From NCBI GenBank assembly GCA_963665275.2, contig CAXXIN010000007.1:64001-128000 (forward strand): 64,000 bases of DNA. Reading direction: 5' to 3'. The notes beneath the pieces are model-generated. The model made no database searches, was not told the origin of the DNA, and was given only the letters and a program-made list of their open reading frames with translations. Each line of letters opens with the position of its first letter. Within the stretch, counting starts at the first letter, position 1. Position numbers and translations under genes: made by a program. Source of the DNA: Negativicutes bacterium. Lineage in GTDB: Bacteria; Bacillota; Negativicutes; UBA1444. This document shows, in pieces, positions 54,414 through 64,000 of this stretch.

Positions 54414-57400
54414 AAAATAAAAGTCGCGCCCGCATGGGGCGCGAAGTGATGGAACGTCCGGGCGCTTATGAAATAAGGAGTTTCAATCCACGCGCCCCGC
54501 ACGGGGCGCGACCTACGTGCCGATGTATGGATCTGTGGCCATCTTGGTTTCAATCCACGCGCCCATAGAAATTTTTGCTTCACGACCATTGTTTCAATCC
54601 ACGTGTCCGCATGGGGCGCGACAACGGAACGGAAGTCTATCATTTCCCAACCAGCGTTTCAATCCACGCGCCCGCATGGGGCGCGACGTTGATAACAGCA
54701 TCAGCATAGCGCCCTTGATCGTTTCAATCCACGCGCCCGCATGGGGCGCGACACCCTGCCAGCGCCAATGTCCCCGTCAGGACGCTTGTTTCAATCCACG
54801 CGCCCGCATGGGGCGCGACGTATTTGGCATGCCGGCTAGATTATGCCCGAAGTTTCAATCCACGCGCCCGCATGGGGCGCGACCTTTCGTTCCACTGTAA
54901 CGCGGCGAACAGCGAAGTTTCAATCCACGCGCCCGCATGGGGCGCGACTTTCTAACGGGGGCAGGGCGTAGATAACGCTGGGTTTCAATCCACGCGCCCG
55001 CATGGGGCGCGACCTCATTTTCGAGTTTTTGAGAATTTGCGTATTGGTTTCAATCCACGCGCCCGCATGGGGCGCGACTGCAGTCTCGGCTGCACGATCA
55101 TGGTTTGAATTGTTTCAATCCACGCGCCCGCATGGGGCGCGACGAGCTTTTTAGAGCAGATTTCACACCGCCGGAGTTTCAATCCACGCGCCCGCATGGG
55201 GCGCGACGCGGCGAGAACGGCATCTACGGTTGCCCAAAAGTTTCAATCCACGCGCCCGCATGGGGCGCGACGATTAGAAGTAAGAAAATTGCGATCCATT
55301 GCCGGTTTCAATCCACGCGCCCGCATGGGGCGCGACCTTCCCGTACTGACTTGCGCTGTAGCCGTTCAAGTTTCAATCCACGCGCCCGCATGGGGCGCGA
55401 CATACGATCCACGATGAACCAACCACCCGAAACACGTTTCAATCCACGCGCCCGCATGGGGCGCGACGCGAAAGGCTAGGCAAGACGGAAAAAGGCTATC
55501 GCGTTTCAATCCACGCGCCCGCATGGGGCGCGACCCATCGGATAGTCGCGAAAGGAACGATTGACGAGTTTCAATCCACGCGCCCGCATGGGGCGCGACG
55601 ATTAGAAGTAAGAAAATTGCGATCCATTGCCGGTTTCAATCCACGCGCCCGCATGGGGCGCGACGAAATCGCTCTTTGATTCGATCCTTCTCATGCTTGT
55701 TTCAATCCACGCGCCCGCATGGGGCGCGACAATCGCGGCTTGCGAGGCAAATCGTACTGCTAGTTTCAATCCACGCGCCCGCATGGGGCGCGACACTCTT
55801 TCTCGGCTTCTTTTTGGTCAAGCCCGAGGTTTCAATCCACGCGCCCGCATGGGGCGCGACAGCAGCAGGCGGTGGAAGATGCGAAGAAAGACCAGTTTCA
55901 ATCCACGCGCCCGCATGGGGCGCGACTTGCTGGGTGTGGATGAGCAGGAGATACCGACGTTTCAATCCACGCGCCCGCATGGGGCGCGACCAAAAAACAT
56001 CAAAGAGGTGGAGAGCCGGGGCGATGTTTCAATCCACGCGCCCGCATGGGGCGCGACCTAGTTTTGCGGCTTCGTAAATGTTCATTTTGTGTTTCAATCC
56101 ACGCGCCCGCATGGGGCGCGACGCGAATATGCGTCATGTTTGGATCCTTTACCAGTTTCAATCCACGCGCCCGCATGGGGCGCGACCGGAGGAAATCAGA
56201 AAGCTGCTGGGAGGAGGTGAGTTTCAATCCACGCGCCCGCATGGGGCGCGACGGTACTCGTTGATATACGGGATAGACCCAGACGTTTCAATCCACGCGC
56301 CCGCATGGGGCGCGACATGGAAAGACTGCGAATTGCGGGGGTGGAAACGGTTTCAATCCACGCGCCCGCATGGGGCGCGACCATGAGGAGGTATTTAAAA
56401 ATGCAATTGAGTAATGTTTCAATCCACGCGCCCGCATGGGGCGCGACTACGATTGTTGGCGAATTGCACATTACCCCCGAGGTTTCAATCCACGCGCCCG
56501 CATGGGGCGCGACACATACCGATAACCATGCAAACGAGGATGATGATGTTTCAATCCACGCGCCCGCATGGGGCGCGACGCCGGGGCAAAGTTACCGCCA
56601 AGCGTGTGACGAGTTTCAATCCACGCGCCCGCATGGGGCGCGACGAACCGTTGTTTCTACCGATTGTTCGAGTCGTTTGTTTCAATCCACGCGCCCGCAT
56701 GGGGCGCGACTGGTCGCTACGGCGATTCGTTTCAGGTCATTCAGTTTCAATCCACGCGCCCGCATGGGGCGCGACCAGGGTTGTATCGCAGCGATTGGCG
56801 CGAGAACAGTTTCAATCCACGCGCCCGCATGGGGCGCGACTGCCTTTTTTTGTGCGCTGTTTAGGGTTCCCCATGTTTCAATCCACGCGCCCGCATGGGG
56901 CGCGACTTGCAAGGCGGCGAATCTTTTGCACAACCGTATGTTTCAATCCACGCGCCCGCATGGGGCGCGACTTCAATAGCCGCCCTTGCATTAAAAACTT
57001 CGGGGTTTCAATCCACGCGCCCGCATGGGGCGCGACCTGACAGGTCTGACGGAGACATTCAAACTGTTGTTTCAATCCACGCGCCCGCATGGGGCGCGAC
57101 CCGCCGTTGGGGACCGTTGGCGTGGGCCACGATGTTTCAATCCACGCGCCCGCATGGGGCGCGACAACCGAAGGGCATATTTTGGCAGCGAGTGCATAGT
57201 TTCAATCCACGCGCCCGCATGGGGCGCGACGGGCGGTAGTGCTGGCCTGCCAGACCCCGCGCGTTTCAATCCACGCGCCCGCATGGGGCGCGACAATAAT
57301 CGATATCCTGATATTCGGCTTGGTATAGTTTCAATCCACGCGCCCGCATGGGGCGCGACTGTTGCAGGATCCGGGCTGATAAAGCTACACCCGTTTCAAT

Positions 57401-57884
57401 CCACGCGCCCGCATGGGGCGCGACTCTTTGACTTTGTTAATGAGAGGCCCCTCGATCGTGTTTCAATCCACGCGCCCGCATGGGGCGCGACGATCACCGC
57501 CGCGTCATCTTCCCATCCGTACATGTTTCAATCCACGCGCCCGCATGGGGCGCGACACCTTTTGTTTTTTGTATGAATATGCGGACTTGGTTTCAATCCA
57601 CGCGCCCGCATGGGGCGCGACTGATCAGAGAAACACTATTCAACTTTAAGGGCGTGTTTCAATCCACGCGCCCGCATGGGGCGCGACGCCAGAACGATTG
57701 AGGCGCAGATTATTGCCGAAACGTTTCAATCCACGCGCCCGCATGGGGCGCGACAAAATGTTCGACGTTCAGGTAAATGGCGGATTGTTTCAATCCACGC
57801 GCCCGCATGGGGCGCGACTGGGGTATGCCCAGCTTAAGGACCGACCCAACCGGTTTCAATCCACGCGCCCGCATGGGGCGCGAC
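54414..57884 (-). CRISPR. Type I-C-like CRISPR array: 54 repeat units (4 degenerate at the trailer), 53 spacers mostly 32-35 nt; repeat GTCGCGCCCCATGCGGGCGCGTGGATTGAAAC
   Basis: Directly visible 32-nt repeats ending ATTGAAAC on the minus strand; degenerate units at the left end, leader and cas2 at the right end; counted by hand. Confidence 0.98.
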
Positions 57885-58052
57885 AGTCTTTTTAGAACCA
57901 TAGAAAAATCATGCATTCCCACACATGATTTCGCGAACCCACTAAACCCAATCTTCCAAACTCTACGAAATTTCCTATTAACTTCCCGAATCCAGCTGTT
58001 TTCCAGCCGTGCGAACTTCCCCCCGGCAAAACTTGTTCGCTTGGAGTTCGCA
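57885..58052 (-). promoter_or_regulatory. CRISPR leader
   Basis: 168-nt non-coding region between the cas2 stop and the first repeat, with four GCGAAC/GTTCGC copies. Confidence 0.8.
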
Positions 58053-58343
58053 CTACATCAGCAACAAGCCTTCCGGGTCATAACCGCCCTTCGCGCCAGC
58101 ATGTTCCACGCGACTCTTCCAATTATTCCCCAGGAAATAATACCGCAGACTATCCGTCTCAGGATCAATGATACTCTCCAAACGATGCTTTAACTCCGCA
58201 AACTGAGTCGGATCTACCAAACATTCAAACACAGAGTTTTGCACTCGCTGCCCATAATTCACACATTGTTTGGCGACTTTGCGCAGCCGCGTCTTGCCAG
58301 TTTCCGTCGTCACGCTCACATCGTACGTGATCAACACCATCAT
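58053..58343 (-). CDS. cas2: CRISPR-associated endonuclease Cas2
   Basis: VLITYDV, RLRKVAKQC..YGQRVQNSVFEC and DSLRYY. Confidence 0.96.
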   Translation of the reverse strand: MMVLITYDVSVTTETGKTRLRKVAKQCVNYGQRVQNSVFECLVDPTQFAELKHRLESIIDPETDSLRYYFLGNNWKSRVEHAGAKGGYDPEGLLLM

Positions 58344-58352
58344 TTTATCACC

Positions 58353-59384
58353 TCATTTCCAGAAAAACGGCGGATAATCTTCCAGATCGCCACGCATATG
58401 TCGTGCCATTAACAAAGCCTGAGCATAGGGCACCAAGCCCAAAGGTATCTTTTCTTCCAGATATGGATGCGTGATTTCTTCCTGCTTGCGTTTTTGCCAA
58501 GCAGTTAAAACTTCTTTGCGCGTATCGTCTTCCATAATCACCGCCTCGTTCTCTTTAACGACGAAGCCTTTTCCCGAAATCTGCTTCCGATTGATTAGCG
58601 TCAGCGCCAACCTGTCGGCGAAATGCGGTCGCAATTCTTCCATGAGATCCAGCGCCAAACTCGAACGTCCCGGTCGATCACGATGCAAAAAACCCACCTG
58701 CGGGTCCAAGCCGACACTTTCCAGCGCCGCAGTCACTTCATGCGCCAGTAGCGTGTATAAAAACGACAACAACGCATTCACCGGATCAGTCGGCGGCCTA
58801 CGATTACGATTATTCAGGCAAAACGTTTCTTTTTGCGCCAATATCATTTGATTGAAATTTGCAAAATACGCCCCAGCAGCTTCTCCTTCGATTCCTCGAA
58901 TCACGTCGCCTGTATGCGCTTGCTCCAAACGAGGCATCATGCCTGCCATTAACTCCATCGCCCGTTCCACCGGAGCAGCCTCCACCACATCCGCATGATC
59001 CCGCAACGCCCGATGCAACAGCGCCCGGCTATTGAGAATTTTAGCCGCGATGAAACGACGGGACAGTCGGGTCGAGATTTTCACATCATCAGCCCAACGA
59101 TACTGGGTACGCCGCAGCAACACATTACCGGATACTTTTCCTGTCACACGTCCCATGAATTTACCGAACTCAGTCAAAAAAGAAATCGCAACGCCTCTAT
59201 CGCAGCACAGCTTCATAAGTTTTGGCGACGCACCAGAAAACCCGAAACAAACGATCCCTTCCAAATTATGAACCGGAACGCGAAATTTTACTTCATTCTG
59301 CAATTTGATTAGCACATTCTCGCCATCACAGGCAAGGTACGAATCCGGCAACGTAACATAAAGAGTGTTCAACAGGCGTCTCAA
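58353..59384 (-). CDS. cas1: CRISPR-associated endonuclease Cas1 (I-C type)
   Basis: LLNTLYVT, GNVLLRRTQY, RGIEG, RRPPTDPVNALLSFLY, GFLHRDRPGR.SLALDLMEE and YPPFFWK. Confidence 0.96.
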   Translation of the reverse strand: MRRLLNTLYVTLPDSYLACDGENVLIKLQNEVKFRVPVHNLEGIVCFGFSGASPKLMKLCCDRGVAISFLTEFGKFMGRVTGKVSGNVLLRRTQYRWADDVKISTRLSRRFIAAKILNSRALLHRALRDHADVVEAAPVERAMELMAGMMPRLEQAHTGDVIRGIEGEAAGAYFANFNQMILAQKETFCLNNRNRRPPTDPVNALLSFLYTLLAHEVTAALESVGLDPQVGFLHRDRPGRSSLALDLMEELRPHFADRLALTLINRKQISGKGFVVKENEAVIMEDDTRKEVLTAWQKRKQEEITHPYLEEKIPLGLVPYAQALLMARHMRGDLEDYPPFFWK

Positions 59385-60064
59385 TCACCCACCTCCACAC
59401 GACACATTCGAGCCAAATAGTTGCTCACAGACCGATGCTTCAACATCCATTGCGGCTGGCACTCCTCAACCAAAGAACATTGGGAACAGTGTTTTCCTTT
59501 GGGAGCTTTCGGCGTGATCCCGCTCCGCAGCAGCTCATGGATTCGCAGTGCCAATTCCGTAGTATGGCAGCGCAATTTTTCATCGATCGCCACGGCTTCG
59601 CGCCGCTTGATCTGTGCGTAAAACAGAAATCCTTCCGCAATCGACACACCCATCATTTCTTCCAATGCCATCGCCTGCGCGCAGAGCTGGACCGCATCCC
59701 GGTCATCCGATTTGGGTTTGCCCCGCTTGTATTCCACCGGAACCGGTCGCCACCACCCTTGCCGATCTTTTAGCCTGCACGTTACCCCCTCGATGGCAGC
59801 TTCACTTTGGTAAAATTCCACCACATCAGCTACACCCCGCAGGCCAAGCCGTTGGGATATGAGAGGCATGCTCCGCACAATCCGCAAACTTTTCCGACTC
59901 TCGTCAAAAAACGGATCGTCAGCGCGCTCGTGCAGGTGCTTTCCTTCCACCGTCCGCACATTCTCAGCCCATACCTGTTCCACATGAATGAGTGCCCACT
60001 GCCGCTCACAAAAGGCCATATGCTGGATTCCTGAAAGTAGCAACAGGTCGTCGTCAGCAAACAT
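59381..60064 (-). CDS. cas4: CRISPR-associated Cas4
   Basis: LSGIQHMAFCERQWALIH, GVADVVE, PVEYKRG, QLCAQ and CSQCSLVEEC. Confidence 0.95.
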   Translation of the reverse strand: MFADDDLLLLSGIQHMAFCERQWALIHVEQVWAENVRTVEGKHLHERADDPFFDESRKSLRIVRSMPLISQRLGLRGVADVVEFYQSEAAIEGVTCRLKDRQGWWRPVPVEYKRGKPKSDDRDAVQLCAQAMALEEMMGVSIAEGFLFYAQIKRREAVAIDEKLRCHTTELALRIHELLRSGITPKAPKGKHCSQCSLVEECQPQWMLKHRSVSNYLARMCRVEVGD

Positions 60065-60084
60065 TTTTTACATCCTTTTTATTG

Positions 60085-62271
60085 TTACACAATTAGAACT
60101 TCATCACTTGAGTGTTGCCGCCAATCAATTCCATTTAAAATACCGTGCATATATCCAAGAAAGTTATCATATTGATTTGGCAATAACACAGGGAGTTCAG
60201 TTATTTCAACACCTAGCGTCTTTACAACGAATCGTCGTAAATTAACGCTACCTCTTTGCAATTCGCGTGAAGAAACCTGCTCACCCATACTGATTTTTTT
60301 TGCAACTTCTTGATCGGCTAGAACAGTTATTGTATCGTCTTCGATTATTCGAAACTTCTCAGCGACATCGACAAAAGCACACTGTTTGTCAAGTTTGCAG
60401 ATTTCTTCCGGCAATCCGCCTAATTCCTTACACTCCATATCGAAGCCTTCAGTGACTGCAACAGTAATGGTCTGGCTAGTTAATACCCCTGAGTCAATCT
60501 GTTTAAGAAATACGGAACGCGGAATATCAAACAGAGGATTCCGTTGAAAGCCAGCATCAGCTATTGTAAAACAAAGCAGGGTTCCATCTCTATATTCACC
60601 GTTTCGACTGACTCGCCCGCTAAGCTGCCAACAGCTTTGTAATGATCGTAGTTCACAAAATCCATAATGAAATGAAAAATCCATTCCACATTCAACACAA
60701 CTTGTAGCAATCAGCGTCCAGTTTTCGTTGAAGCCAAAATCAGGATTTAATCTACGCTTTACTTCGTCAATAACGCCTTCTCTATCACCTGGCGTCAACG
60801 CCGTTGAGAGGTGAAGAACCTCATGCCCCTCCTCGCGCATTGTTTTGGCAAGAAAGGCAGCTGACCGAACAGTGTCCATAACGACAAGGCGTGAACCTGA
60901 AAAACTTGTGACAAAATCAATCAATTTGGAGACGCTTTCAAAATGCGGCGGTTGAGTTGCCATTATATTGATGGCAACTCTATTTTTTTCATATTCATTC
61001 AATTCACACGAAAGGTCTGAAGAAAGAATTGGTATAACTGAACGTGACGATACTTTCTGGAAAATCGGGTTTCCCCAAAACTTAATGGACGTACCAGAGC
61101 ATAAACAAAAATGGCAACCCCATTGCTCCGTTAATTCTACAATCCATTTCCAGGCTGGAGGCATAAGTAGTGCGGGTAAAGCTGCATGACTTTCATCCAT
61201 GACAATTCCACATCCTGGCAATTGATGAAGTTTTCGCAGCTTTGACGGAATATTGCTTGCCAACGTCTCAAAGAACTGAACAGCAGTAGTTACAATAATA
61301 GGTGCAGACCAAGTTGATGCCAGATGTCGTAATTCGATGTTTTCGAAATCAGCTTGATGATGATGTTCAGCGACTATTGAAGCAGGGTCTTCGCCTTCAA
61401 GAACAATAGCTTCACGTAACACAGCAACAGTCTGCGAGATAATATTTGTAAACGGCAGAACAATAATAATGTGCCGCAGATTATGTGCAATCGCTTTTTG
61501 CAACATATGCGCCACGACAGCGGTTGTTTTGCCAGTTCCGACGGGACTGTCGCAATATACTAGGGCCTCATTGACATTCGCCTCTTCGCAACACTGAAAC
61601 ATTTTTTGCCTAAGCCGATTCCGTTTCGTAGTTGGAGCACCCGCCTGCAAATCATTAACATATTGCTTGAGTCGCTGCAAACGTTTAGCCCAAAGAGTAA
61701 GTGGCAAAACAGCTTTTTCTGCCGACGAATCAGAATAATCAGCATCTACAAGGCAACTTAGCATCATCCGGTATTCCATTGAAGAGATCTTTGATATTTG
61801 CGATAAACCTAATTTTACTCCCTGTATTTCCTCGTTATGCAGTCGCAAATATTCAGTTATGCAAGCATTCGTTTGTTCCTTGACGTCTGTGTTGCGAAAA
61901 GGGTTCGCCTTCAACCTTTCTTCCATCAGATTGGGAAGACCTGGGCGATGATGCGAATAAATCAAGGTTGCAGAAATTTTATTCTGACAATCCTCAAACA
62001 AATATTTACTTCCAGCATCGCGATGGTCAACAGGCAACCGTTTCGCTTTTTTCACACCACAAAGCACAGCTTGATTTAAACTATCAAGCTTTCCCAAGTC
62101 GTGAAACATTGCTGCACCGGCTACCAAAGAACGATAGCTGTCATGCTTTTCATTCAATGCAAATGGTAAAACGGCCTCTATATTTTCACATGAGTTTTCA
62201 AACACCCCAGTCACATGATCATGATAGGACTGGGATGGTTGCCCGTTTCTGGCGCTGTGTGCCAATAACAT
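60085..62271 (-). CDS. cas3: CRISPR-associated helicase/nuclease Cas3 (HD + SF2), 728 aa
   Basis: LAHS..YHDH, FHDLGK, LVDADYSD, PVGTGKT, MDESH, TSCVECGMD and QLSGRVSRNG. Confidence 0.9.
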   Translation of the reverse strand: MLLAHSARNGQPSQSYHDHVTGVFENSCENIEAVLPFALNEKHDSYRSLVAGAAMFHDLGKLDSLNQAVLCGVKKAKRLPVDHRDAGSKYLFEDCQNKISATLIYSHHRPGLPNLMEERLKANPFRNTDVKEQTNACITEYLRLHNEEIQGVKLGLSQISKISSMEYRMMLSCLVDADYSDSSAEKAVLPLTLWAKRLQRLKQYVNDLQAGAPTTKRNRLRQKMFQCCEEANVNEALVYCDSPVGTGKTTAVVAHMLQKAIAHNLRHIIIVLPFTNIISQTVAVLREAIVLEGEDPASIVAEHHHQADFENIELRHLASTWSAPIIVTTAVQFFETLASNIPSKLRKLHQLPGCGIVMDESHAALPALLMPPAWKWIVELTEQWGCHFCLCSGTSIKFWGNPIFQKVSSRSVIPILSSDLSCELNEYEKNRVAINIMATQPPHFESVSKLIDFVTSFSGSRLVVMDTVRSAAFLAKTMREEGHEVLHLSTALTPGDREGVIDEVKRRLNPDFGFNENWTLIATSCVECGMDFSFHYGFCELRSLQSCWQLSGRVSRNGEYRDGTLLCFTIADAGFQRNPLFDIPRSVFLKQIDSGVLTSQTITVAVTEGFDMECKELGGLPEEICKLDKQCAFVDVAEKFRIIEDDTITVLADQEVAKKISMGEQVSSRELQRGSVNLRRFVVKTLGVEITELPVLLPNQYDNFLGYMHGILNGIDWRQHSSDEVLIV

Positions 62272-63146
62272 TACATCTGATCCATCAGATCGATAATCGG
62301 TGATGCTTTATCTTTCAATAGCCCGTTGTTCAGCTTGCCAATATTTTCGGTTAGCACTTCTTCATTGTAATCCTTCCATGAAGTTGCCGCTCCTACTGCC
62401 CCGCCGATACGTTGTGGCATCAACGCTTCGATCATTTTAAAGTCGCTGAAAGTACCACGCGCACGATTATGTTCCGTATAAAACGCGTGACGAACATTCA
62501 CTTGGGATCGTATATAAGACGCAGTTTCCGAATAGGCATGAGGAATCAACTTAAAGAGCAAATCAATATCCTTTTTCGTGCAATGCGTTTTGTACGCCGC
62601 TGTAGCGTTGATGAAAAATGGCATAGCATACAAACCATAGGACACAATTCTAAATGCAAGTGGAGCCATTCCTTTGCTCTTGTCATCTTCAACCGGAAGG
62701 ATTTTTGTGGTAGTCATACGCTCGATTTTTACGGGATCAAGCGAAACACCCAATCCGAACTGAACTACGCCGGTCGTTATGAAAGATTTTGCTTCGTCAG
62801 TCTGTTCCTCAAGAAACGTTGTTCCAAAGACGCGAACATCCCAATATTTCGCAGTTATTTCATCAGGTGACATAACCTTAACATCAGTTCGTTTTGTATC
62901 TTTACTTTCCAAAACATCAAAGCCTTGATTGGGTAGCTTAAGCTCTTGGGCGATATCTTTCCAAAATGGCGATTCCTTTTCCGACACCAAATCACGCAGT
63001 TTTCTTTTGAAGGACACCGGGGAAATTTCACCGCGACCATCTTGGCGAGTACGCGGATCACTTTCACGGTCGGGATCACCGTTGGGATTTGAACTGATGG
63101 CTTCGATCAGCAGTAAACCCGTTCCTCTGTTGATTTGTTCAGTCAT
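62271..63146 (-). CDS. cas7: Divergent Cas7 (Csd2/Csh2-related) backbone protein
   Basis: NPNGDPD..PR, SFKRKLRD, WDVRVFG and TGVVQFG; start at ATG 63146 after GAAGGAGG; TAATG coupling to cas3. Confidence 0.85.
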   Translation of the reverse strand: MTEQINRGTGLLLIEAISSNPNGDPDRESDPRTRQDGRGEISPVSFKRKLRDLVSEKESPFWKDIAQELKLPNQGFDVLESKDTKRTDVKVMSPDEITAKYWDVRVFGTTFLEEQTDEAKSFITTGVVQFGLGVSLDPVKIERMTTTKILPVEDDKSKGMAPLAFRIVSYGLYAMPFFINATAAYKTHCTKKDIDLLFKLIPHAYSETASYIRSQVNVRHAFYTEHNRARGTFSDFKMIEALMPQRIGGAVGAATSWKDYNEEVLTENIGKLNNGLLKDKASPIIDLMDQM

Positions 63147-63537
63147 GATTTTCATCCTCCTTCTTTTCATAAGGGATCGCAGCCAAGTAGCCCAATAGCA
63201 CTTGCGCCTGTTCTGCTGGAGAAAATGTTTCAGACAGTTCATTTGCTGAGATTTTTAAACTGACTTCCGAGAACCGCGCAAGAATCCATTTTGCCAGCCC
63301 TGCTCCCTCACCTGTTGATGTATCTGCCCAAGCCAAATAGATTTTCATGCGATCTCTTAAGCGGAGAACTCCTTCCACAGGATTTTCCGAGGCTATCGCC
63401 AACATTTCATTTCCCATAAGTTGAGTCGGCAGCGGCTTTTTTTCGTTTCCTCCGTTACGCACTTGCACACAGTACTGCTTATGCAGCATATCTGCAAGCT
63501 TAAGAAACTGACCCACATTAAACGGTGCATCCAACAT
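63139..63537 (-). CDS. Putative internally translated small subunit Cas11 (132 aa)
   Basis: In-frame ATG at 63537 preceded by AGAAAGGAG-AAGTAC inside the cas8-like frame. Confidence 0.6.
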   Translation of the reverse strand: MLDAPFNVGQFLKLADMLHKQYCVQVRNGGNEKKPLPTQLMGNEMLAIASENPVEGVLRLRDRMKIYLAWADTSTGEGAGLAKWILARFSEVSLKISANELSETFSPAEQAQVLLGYLAAIPYEKKEDENHD

Positions 63538-64000
63538 GTACTTCTCCTTTCTGACGCCAAGACGCCATAACAAAATTGAGATGAGGGAAATGAACATACA
63601 TAAGTTTTTAATCTGCTTGGAAAATGCCTCTGAAGCATTTAATGGATACGGGAATTGAGCGATTATTTGTTGACCAATATCTCCCAACAGCCCTTGGACT
63701 TTCCAAACCGATTTTTGGATGAAATTAGAAAGCAAATCGGAGTCTGAGAACTCCGTCTCGGACTGTGGCATATACAACCGATAAACTTCATGGAGAGAAA
63801 CAGCACTTTGTTTGAGCGGTTTCGCTGAACCAGAACGAGTGTAATGCAATTTCATAATTTGAAGAATTTCATTGGGACCGGGACATATCGGTTTATATTC
63901 TCGAATACCGGTTTTATCTTTAACACGAATACTTATCGGCGGACAGTTTTTTGATTCATCCGACCATGCAAGCAAGTTGTTACAAAAATTCTGTACCGAA
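63139..64000 (-). CDS. Putative Cascade large subunit (Cas8-like), 5'-truncated by window edge
   Basis: Open frame to the edge, immediately upstream of and overlapping cas7; C-terminal PFNVGQFL..EQAQVLLGY resembles the Cas8c/Cas11 helical tail. Confidence 0.6.
   Translation of the reverse strand, partial: SVQNFCNNLLAWSDESKNCPPISIRVKDKTGIREYKPICPGPNEILQIMKLHYTRSGSAKPLKQSAVSLHEVYRLYMPQSETEFSDSDLLSNFIQKSVWKVQGLLGDIGQQIIAQFPYPLNASEAFSKQIKNLCMFISLISILLWRLGVRKEKYMLDAPFNVGQFLKLADMLHKQYCVQVRNGGNEKKPLPTQLMGNEMLAIASENPVEGVLRLRDRMKIYLAWADTSTGEGAGLAKWILARFSEVSLKISANELSETFSPAEQAQVLLGYLAAIPYEKKEDENHD

Follow-up and report, generated by a model that had tools for sequence, protein, structure and literature searches.

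A diverged type I-C-like effector cassette has probably replaced the canonical one in place at a Negativicutes CRISPR-Cas locus

How does an ordinary type I-C CRISPR array, together with its adaptation genes, come to be joined to an effector module that curated type I-C models recognise poorly or not at all? This question is raised by a CRISPR-Cas locus (L002) at the end of a 64,000-nucleotide (nt) stretch of DNA from a Negativicutes bacterium (assembly GCA_963665275.2, contig CAXXIN010000007.1, positions 64,001 to 128,000; G000:C7:64001-128000 in our numbering), hereafter the window. Lists of open reading frames (ORFs) and hidden Markov model (HMM) scans place the locus on the minus strand, where all genes, including those that lie past the window end, read in the order cas5-cas8-cas7-cas3-cas4-cas1-cas2-leader-array. 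An earlier, sequence-only reading of the window had pointed out that cas3 lies between cas7 and cas4, coupled to cas7 through TAATG, and that this departs from the canonical order cas3-cas5-cas8c-cas7-cas4-cas1-cas2. Both features are present in the sequence, and the standard order was observed in 20 of 20 canonical comparison loci where the genes were detected (two loci each had one gene undetected). We hold it probable, at roughly 85%, that the locus is a complete type I system of two histories, in which the array, leader and cas4-cas1-cas2 are resident type I-C components and a variant effector cassette has replaced the canonical one in place.

The same chromosomal site carries a canonical cas3-cas5-cas8c-cas7 set in another genome of the same genus (G410, locus L133). 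DNA identity between this genome and the window's site is 72-75% over the BioY-BioB-exonuclease flank and 75.8% from cas4 through the first repeats. No DNA similarity was found between these two aligned flanks, the alignment ending at window position 60056, 8 nt inside cas4. Cas4, Cas1 and Cas2 are 79%, 85% and 89% identical as proteins, and the leader and repeat are orthologous, with two differing loop positions in the repeat and different spacers. Between the flanks, G410 holds a VWA gene and a WYL/WCX regulator (G410:C64, 4039-6494) followed by the canonical effector genes, and the window-equivalent positions 66237-67676 hold instead an aldo-keto reductase gene, a fragment of a RhuM-family gene and an orphan ORF of 91 amino acids (aa). 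Orthologous adaptation genes and flanks are thus found around non-orthologous effectors, with a sharp boundary between them. Because homology to G410 stops at the cas4 start, the effector module has most probably been replaced in place and, since the VWA and WYL/WCX genes of the congener are missing here, a likely CRISPR regulator went with the old effector. A search for remnants of canonical effector genes upstream of cas5 returned only noise (E >= 0.1). The cassette itself looks like a unit, as the similarity of the window to L003, a locus in which such a cassette stands alone, is confined to cas3 through cas5 (76.7% DNA identity).

The canonical effector appears to have been the earlier partner of this adaptation module, since Cas3, Cas5, Cas8 and Cas7 of G410 are 64-80% identical to those of two genomes from other families of the class (G430 and G422), in parallel with the 66-88% seen for Cas4, Cas1 and Cas2. 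All Cas1 homologues from the same genus (85%) and the same class (75-78%) adjoin a canonical Cas7. In the same way, the best 20 fetched Cas1 matches from 401 genomes of the host phylum (58-73% identity) all lie in canonical loci, with effector proteins 22-38% identical to those of the window, and a variant Cas7 was found in 0 of 40 relatives, the best match being 31% identical. A Cas1 tree built from 49 rows places the window protein as sister to a pair of Cas1 proteins from canonical loci (support 100/99); on it, the label 'variant' requires at least four changes, and a single clade of all variant-locus Cas1 is rejected by the approximately unbiased (AU) test (p 2.5e-8). In a Cas7 tree (a quick tree of 69 rows, from which rows shorter than 250 aa or with stops were dropped), canonical and variant proteins are split by a fully supported branch of 2.68 + 3.61 (6.3) changes per site, and the window falls within the variant clade, in a subclade of close relatives that usually lack adaptation genes. 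The proposal of the sequence-only reading, a foreign effector module joined by a swap to the I-C array and adaptation genes already resident, is therefore supported by synteny with G410, by the trees and by the direction of the exchange.

Exchange at this point of the operon was also observed elsewhere. The loci L030 (15188-20140, variant) and L108 (10657-14589, canonical) share cas4-cas1-cas2 and array at 75-78% DNA identity, a nearly identical Cas1 and an extra 0.7-0.9 kb or so between cas4 and cas1; as the DNA similarity of the two sets in precisely where cas4 starts, they are taken as a second independent exchange. Moreover, the adaptation proteins of L136 (G431:C1:3061000-3080000) are 72-80% identical to those of L133 and its canonical effector proteins only 29-34%, a contrast from which two deep clades of canonical I-C effectors also seem to exchange on the same adaptation module. 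Finally, Cas1 proteins of variant and canonical loci are intermixed within one starred clade of the tree, which suggests that canonical and variant effectors may be interchangeable on one adaptation module.

The resident components are those of an ordinary type I-C locus. Cas1 (58353..59384, 343 aa) is a Cas1c that reaches 494.6 bits with TIGR03640, against a cut-off of 385. Cas4 (59381..60064, 227 aa; TIGR00372, 128.8 bits), the start codon of which forms the right-hand breakpoint of the replacement, and Cas2 (58053..58343, 96 aa; TIGR01573, 70.7 bits, and PF09827) also score above their cut-offs. The 168-nt leader (57885..58052) is orthologous to that of G410 in the alignment with L133. It is followed by an array (54591..57884) of 51 repeats, each 32 nt long, with 50 spacers measuring 32-35 nt, of which 49 are unique. 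As transcribed, the repeat reads GTCGCGCCCCATGCGGGCGCGTGGATTGAAAC; 50 of the 51 copies are identical and the trailer-most one has two mismatches. The repeat ends in GTGGATTGAAAC, as do the arrays of both variant and canonical loci, so that a type I-C adaptation module and a type I-C-type repeat stand together in the window. No other array of this kind, and no other Cas1, was found in the host genome.

The effector genes occupy the remainder of the locus. The C-terminal 286 codons of cas8 lie in the window (63139..64000), and the gene continues to G000:C7:129235 (window-equivalent 65235), giving a protein of 698 aa. Directly upstream of it, outside the window, is a cas5 gene of 206 aa; with this gene found beyond the window end, the effector set is complete without cas6. 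Reading past position 64000, as the sequence-only reading had envisaged for cas5 and cas6, thus yielded the former and not the latter, and no Cas6 (PF01881) was found in the host genome, which is 92.6% complete. All seven cas genes are open and tightly coupled. The cas7 ORF extends to 63242, and its most likely start is the second ATG, nine bases behind GGAGG, which gives a gene of 291 aa (62271..63146) that overlaps the cas8 stop at one end and cas3 (60085..62271, 728 aa) by TAATG at the other.

Cas7 scores 170 bits with PF05107, above the cut-off, but only 108.8 bits with the Csd2 model TIGR02589, below its cut-off of 182.25, in agreement with the earlier remark that it departs from typical Csd2; the I-B Csh2 model gives 74.6 bits. 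By sequence, its best solved relatives are the I-C Cas7 chains 7kha_B, 9jhb_C and 8g9s_B, followed by one I-B Csh2. Cas3, which follows cas7 instead of heading the operon, consists of an N-terminal HD nuclease domain (residues 18-183) and a superfamily 2 helicase (residues 233-560) in a single fused protein, as expected of type I-C. It reaches 46.3 bits with the HD model TIGR01596, above the cut-off, and lies below every subtype cut-off; its nearest solved chains by sequence are 8g9u_P, from an entry titled type I-C CRISPR-Cas3, and 8zns_A. The peptides quoted in the sequence-only reading (NPNGDPD, TGLLLIEAISS and ISPVSFKRKLRD for Cas7; DESH, CSGT, VECGMD and SGRVSR for Cas3) are all present in the translations. 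Its description of altered helicase motifs holds as far as these quotations go, but the motifs are intact: across 43 members of the lineage, conservation of the HD residues and of GKT, DExH and QxxGRxxR is at least 90%, and all can be aligned with their canonical counterparts, the lineage having DExH where sampled canonical Cas3 proteins have DExQ. Cas5 scores 42.4 bits with the Cas5c model TIGR01876, against a cut-off of 85, and 17.2 bits with the Cas5b model. Eight matches at E <= 0.001 were obtained for it in the PDB, including chains of I-C entries named Cas5 dvulg subtype or pre-crRNA processing endonuclease, crRNA being CRISPR RNA.

The large subunit was the least recognisable component. 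No Pfam or NCBIfam model, TIGR01863 and PF09709 included, matches Cas8; in 20 members of the variant family PF09709 has a weak match in two, and TIGR01863 is matched by 20 of 20 canonical Cas8c controls. Gene by gene, the HMM scores therefore place Cas1 above the I-C cut-off and Cas7 and Cas5 below it, with Cas8 unmatched. Since a 20-sequence profile of Cas8 found nothing relevant among PDB sequences, a search by fold was needed. The AlphaFold2 model (predicted local distance difference test score, pLDDT, 89.6; predicted template modelling score, pTM, 0.82) gave nine Foldseek matches at E <= 0.001, all of them type I-C Cascade chains of Desulfovibrio vulgaris or Neisseria lactamica aligned over large-subunit length, with E values from 1e-11 to 1e-5 (8dfs_I, E 3.5e-11; 8g9t_K, template modelling (TM) score 0.62). 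The next match was a Cascade chain of an I-B CRISPR-associated transposon (E 4.9e-3), and a further I-B chain had an E of 1.1. In parallel, hhalign aligned a 95-sequence Cas8 profile with 20 canonical Cas8c proteins at a probability of 96.8% (E 2.2e-10, 396 columns, within columns 210-700). By profile and predicted fold, Cas8 can thus be considered a homologue of Cas8c, about 100 aa longer than the canonical protein. The earlier statement that the subunit is recognisable only by its position and helical tail stands for the curated models, but not for the profile and the predicted fold. The N-terminal ~200 residues did not align to Cas8c in the profile comparison; in type I-C, the N-terminal part of Cas8c reads the protospacer-adjacent motif (PAM).

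A second product is predicted within cas8. At Met567, an in-frame internal ATG stands behind AAAGGAG in DNA reading AAAGGAGAAGTACATG, and would open a nested cas11 of 132 aa (63139..63537). An ATG was found at the aligned position in 57 of 57 homologous cas8 genes, in 54 of which GGAG, GAGG or AGGA, resembling a Shine-Dalgarno sequence, lies 5-16 nt upstream; the same was true of 39 of 658 other internal in-frame ATGs (5.9%). Gene GC (guanine plus cytosine) across the sampled lineage loci ranges from 31 to 64%. The predicted small subunit measures 117-166 aa in the homologues, with one outlier of 467. The last ~116 residues of Cas8 match short chains of 112-120 residues in I-C Cascade entries (TM 0.59-0.76), which we take to be Cas11c. 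These observations point to a Cas11 made by internal translation within cas8, and an internally translated Cas11 small subunit has reportedly been described for type I-C. In three other loci of the lineage, L022 (9962-12126, Holdemania massiliensis), L049 (9971-12125, Blautia producta DSM 2950) and L068 (10001-12212, a delta-proteobacterial metagenome-assembled genome, MAG), cas8 is split into two ORFs, which may reflect frameshifts or decay.

The effector proteins are 22-32% identical to canonical I-C ones, and the nearest family of each of the four appears to be type I-C, although outside its curated limits. They belong to a larger lineage. A search with Cas8 returned 136 protein clusters, mostly unnamed or 'hypothetical' (as the protein also is in RefSeq Paenibacillus records), with a single one named Cas8c by NCBI. 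A scan of one genome per species gave 66 loci, 10 of them cut short by contig ends, and cas3 follows cas7 in all 56 of the 56 loci whose contig extends beyond cas7; the variant gene order is that of a shared lineage and not a one-off. Judged by record titles, this lineage is present in at least twelve phyla. The titles include Bacillota, Bacteroidota, Thermodesulfobacteriota, Planctomycetota, Nitrospirota, Acidobacteriota and Pseudomonadota as well as Myxococcota, Chloroflexota, Gemmatimonadota, Armatimonadota, Calditrichota and Ignavibacteriota, and one record is labelled as a Methanosarcinales MAG. From its proteins, it appears to be a sister of type I-C that branched off deeply and is seldom annotated.

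Two groups can be distinguished when the comparison is limited to the 34 of 66 loci in which cas3 is complete and followed by 2.5 kb of sequence or more. Distant members, with a Cas8 less than 40% identical to that of the window, have cas4-cas1-cas2 next to cas3 in 23 of 24 cases and arrays with repeats ending in GTGGATTGAAAC. Close members, all from Bacillota and with a Cas8 40-73% identical, have no cas1 nearby in 9 of 10 cases. Beside I-C-type adaptation genes, the arrays of the lineage reach 72 counted repeat copies, some being cut by contig ends. The tenth close member (L007, Paenibacillaceae MAG JBBDIY010000093.1, 6749-22073) carries in succession a canonical cas3, a variant cas5-cas8-cas7-cas3, a canonical cas5-cas8c-cas7-cas4-cas1-cas2 and an array, and looks like either an insertion intermediate toward replacement or a dual-effector locus. 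In L018, also a close relative, all that follows cas3 of the adaptation genes is a cas1 fragment of 70 aa and cas2.

Under the proposed explanation, the genus's own I-C adaptation module would have been inherited at this chromosomal site, and the incoming cas5-cas8(with nested cas11)-cas7-cas3 would have displaced the canonical cas3-cas5-cas8c-cas7 along with the VWA gene and the WYL regulator, its right junction being the cas4 start codon. The working of the assembled system, including its PAM and the fit of resident crRNAs and spacers to the new effector, is drawn by analogy with type I-C. The array would be transcribed from the leader and, since no Cas6 was found, Cas5 is proposed to cut the repeats at the 3' base of their hairpins, giving an 11-nt 5' handle ...AUUGAAAC. 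Cascade would then be formed by Cas5, Cas8, several Cas7 and the internally translated Cas11; after PAM reading by Cas8 and R-loop formation, the HD-helicase Cas3 would be recruited to degrade the target DNA. New spacers would be added by Cas1-Cas2-Cas4. For comparison, TTC or TTN is given as the PAM in the material on two canonical I-C systems. That the system is still active, as the sequence-only reading had suggested, is plausible.

How far can a different history account for the locus? If the whole cas5-cas8-cas7-cas3-cas4-cas1-cas2 operon had been inherited or acquired as one piece, without any swap, it would resemble the distant members, 23 of 24 of which show the full order and in whose lineage an effector GC below the adaptation GC is usual. 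This is nevertheless highly improbable, considering that G410 has orthologous adaptation genes, leader and flanks with a canonical effector, that the window Cas1 is sister to canonical-locus Cas1 (100/99) with a single variant clade rejected by the AU test, and that the window Cas7 belongs to a subclade with no cas1 nearby in 9 of 10 evaluable loci. The direction could also be reversed, with the variant cassette original at the site and the canonical effector taken up by G410; a comparison of two genomes gives no direction by itself, and the canonical effector of G410 has a GC of 0.43-0.51 between flanks of 0.55-0.64. Against this, the G410 effectors follow the adaptation proteins in their identity to G430 and G422 (64-80% and 66-88%), none of 40 relatives has a variant Cas7, and the low-GC block on the window's side contains a RhuM-family fragment and an orphan ORF, so that we find a reversed exchange very unlikely. 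A type I-B derivative that lost cas6 deserves hardly any credence. The adjacency cas3-cas4-cas1-cas2 is that of type I-B, and Cas7 also matches the I-B Csh2 model at 74.6 bits, but I-C models score higher for Cas7 (Csd2, 108.8) and for Cas5 (Cas5c 42.4 against Cas5b 17.2), the Cas8 fold finds I-C chains at E 1e-11 to 1e-5 and I-B chains at 5e-3 and 1.1, cas5 opens the effector set instead of following cas7, and the repeats are I-C-type. Neither cas6 with cas8b nor the I-B order cas8b-cas7-cas5-cas3 was found.

Several observations weigh against an in-place replacement that left a working system. From cas3 to the RhuM fragment (60085 to window-equivalent 66536), GC is 0.422, a value that ranks among the lowest 2.5% when 15,384 equally long windows of the genome are compared, as against 0.511 for cas4-cas1-cas2 and 0.501 for the genome. 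The two hand counts of the sequence-only reading (36/60 at 59641-59700 and 24/60 at 60181-60240) are exact and its composition step is real, but the step alone is weak evidence: the effector lies below the adaptation genes in 25 of 28 lineage loci (mean difference +0.052, against +0.012 in 19 canonical loci), and the effector of the congener is itself lower in GC than its flanks. Since steps of this kind are not confined to newly arrived modules, the step was rejected as insufficient proof of recent import. The uniform repeats are likewise no evidence of present activity, because the array may predate the swap, and regulation may differ now that the WYL regulator of the congener is gone. The array found no match in 50,697 phage and 72,556 plasmid records (viral and metagenome contigs were not scanned), and the 50 spacers found none in the host genome outside the array. 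Finally, the catalytic triad of Cas5c is given as Tyr, Lys and His, with an invariant Lys, in the portion of PMC8524198 used here. Opposite its Lys-His, the Cas5 of this locus has His-Gln or Gln-Leu, depending on which of two PDB alignments, shifted by one residue, is followed, and the only residues conserved in this region among 55 lineage members are Asn121 (53/55) and His124 (51/55). Either the active site has been remodelled or the alignment is off at this point, and pre-crRNA processing by Cas5 is not secured, as the triad Lys-His is without an aligned counterpart.

Some of these points would also suit a chimera that is real but mismatched or decaying, in which the new Cascade fails on the resident repeats, or its PAM differs from the one chosen by Cas4-Cas1-Cas2, leaving the old spacers useless. 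The unrecognisable Lys-His of Cas5, the unaligned N-terminal ~200 residues of Cas8, the lack of spacer targets in the phage, plasmid and own-genome searches and the close relative L018, with only a cas1 fragment and cas2 after cas3, all lean that way. However, the seven genes are open and tightly coupled and the Cas3 motifs intact, long arrays whose repeats have the same ...GTGGATTGAAAC end are retained across the lineage beside I-C-type adaptation genes, and the intermixing of variant and canonical Cas1 in one starred clade suggests interchangeable effectors; a mismatch is accordingly judged unlikely. The replacement of a canonical effector by a variant cassette on a resident I-C module therefore remains the explanation that we prefer.

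Where could such a cassette come from? Eight stand-alone loci were scanned for neighbours. In three of them (L003, 15592-21468; L006, 298-2601; L019, 1793-8424), a D5/NrS-1-type primase-helicase gene stands beside the cassette, the three being 75-96% identical to one another; a phage capsid gene is present in L003 and in L019 as well, the two being 57% identical, and the L019 primase is split by an insertion sequence (rve plus AAA_22). L006 and L019 are titled as different families and have an almost identical Cas7. A fourth stand-alone locus has a phage-type integrase, and the other four have host-like neighbours. This suggests that the primase- or capsid-linked cassettes are carried on a satellite-like or integrative element. 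In ten genomes with stand-alone cassettes, the I-C repeat end was found elsewhere in 33-173 copies in seven, standing in arrays wherever positions were listed, in 3-4 copies in two and not at all in one MAG of 1.8 Mb; reversed-pattern controls gave 0-1. An I-C Cas1 is encoded elsewhere in 3 of 5 tested genomes of this kind, and an I-C-like Cas1 in 105 of 401 genomes of the phylum sample. The data fit a mobile interference module that would borrow I-C crRNAs. In L005 (15357-17210) and L017 (15341-15761 and 19077-19569), adaptation-less cassettes were seen with short I-C-type arrays right after cas3; one of these lies opposite to the cas genes, and the other is an inverted pair around ~3 kb of host-like genes.

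Taken further, the cassette could rank next to I-C as a sub-subtype or subtype, a distinct and self-contained interference module that is mobile, spreading in Bacillota without adaptation genes on satellite-like or integrative elements that encode a capsid and a primase, using host I-C crRNAs in trans, inserting into I-C operons as in L007 and displacing the resident effector as in the window. We put this forward tentatively, with the odds somewhat against it. If it were true, a possible benefit would be a Cascade-Cas3 able to escape anti-CRISPRs directed against canonical I-C.

Outside the operon, upstream of cas5, lie the 91-aa orphan ORF (orf91), for which none of the fetched loci has a homologue, and the C-terminal 99 aa of a RhuM-family gene, beyond which are host-like genes for an aldo-keto reductase, an RNase T-type exonuclease, bioB and bioY. 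On the same contig, at G000:C7:587354-591332, a D5-type primase gene (33% identical to those beside the stand-alone cassettes) adjoins another gene of the RhuM family, which shares 38% identity with the fragment upstream of cas5. This region is probably another mobile element.

With regard to its wider meaning, 'type I-C' appears to hold a second, deeply diverged effector lineage that is largely missed by standard models; on one shared adaptation module, it and the canonical effector seem to replace each other freely. The window and G410, a same-genus pair differing only in the effector block, constitute a clean natural experiment. They raise the questions of how PAM choice by Cas4-Cas1-Cas2 is matched with PAM reading by a very different Cas8, whether stand-alone cassettes use arrays in trans and whether anti-CRISPRs are evaded through exchange. 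For technology, the lineage offers a compact four-gene Cascade-Cas3 set of about 5.8 kb, distinct from the I-C tools now in use.

As to previous descriptions, the sequence-only reading had conceded that the arrangement might already be a defined variant. It is indeed shared by a whole lineage, but no paper was found to define such a variant, nor was an I-C-like lineage with cas3 after cas7 described in the literature covered, which leaves aside the figures and supplements of the 2025 classification, where it may be listed; the portion of its main text used here mentions I-C only for a transposon-associated form. Published 'I-C variants', as far as the portions used here describe them, are other things, namely degraded B. 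cereus loci, an I-G system of mycobacteria and a system of huge phages that has a different helicase.

That effector modules can be replaced in situ while the neighbouring adaptation module stays as it was has been documented (Hudaiberdiev et al. 2017, PMC5704561). In the portion of that study used here, adaptation genes and syntenic flanks are kept and the effector is exchanged at a nucleotide-level boundary, as in the comparison with G410; the exchanges are reported for I-A, I-B, I-D and I-U, with a monophyletic, compact I-C Cas4 and none within I-C. The window exchange differs in being between two deeply split effector lineages on an I-C adaptation module, with at least four recurrences on the Cas1 tree. 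Module exchange is therefore a known process, and what is added here is a second I-C effector lineage in a very clean in situ exchange.

Effector sets without adaptation genes are known as well: the portions used here of PMC7162821 and PMC12669027 describe, respectively, an I-C variant of huge phages without cas1 and cas2 and with another helicase, and III-G, proposed to take crRNAs in trans. The nearest effector relatives of the window resemble them as four-gene cassettes without cas1, cas2 and cas4 (9 of 10 evaluable loci), but the cassettes of this lineage keep a full Cas3, unlike the huge-phage variant, and that of the window is joined to an adaptation module and array instead of standing alone.

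The closest known system is canonical type I-C (Dvulg) of Desulfovibrio vulgaris and Neisseria lactamica (7kha, 8dex, 8g9s-8g9u). Both have a Cas5 with no Cas6 found, a Cas8 with a nested Cas11 (predicted here), a Cas7 that in the window is nearest to I-C Cas7 by sequence, a one-piece HD-helicase Cas3, a separate Cas4, Cas1c and Cas2 and a 32-nt repeat ending in GTGGATTGAAAC, and the predicted Cas8 fold matches full-length large-subunit chains of its Cascade. They differ in that cas3 heads the canonical operon and follows cas7 in the window, and in that the Cas8 of this locus is without a curated-model match, its Cas7 and Cas5 lie below the NCBIfam I-C cut-offs and the Lys-His of Cas5c is not recognisable.

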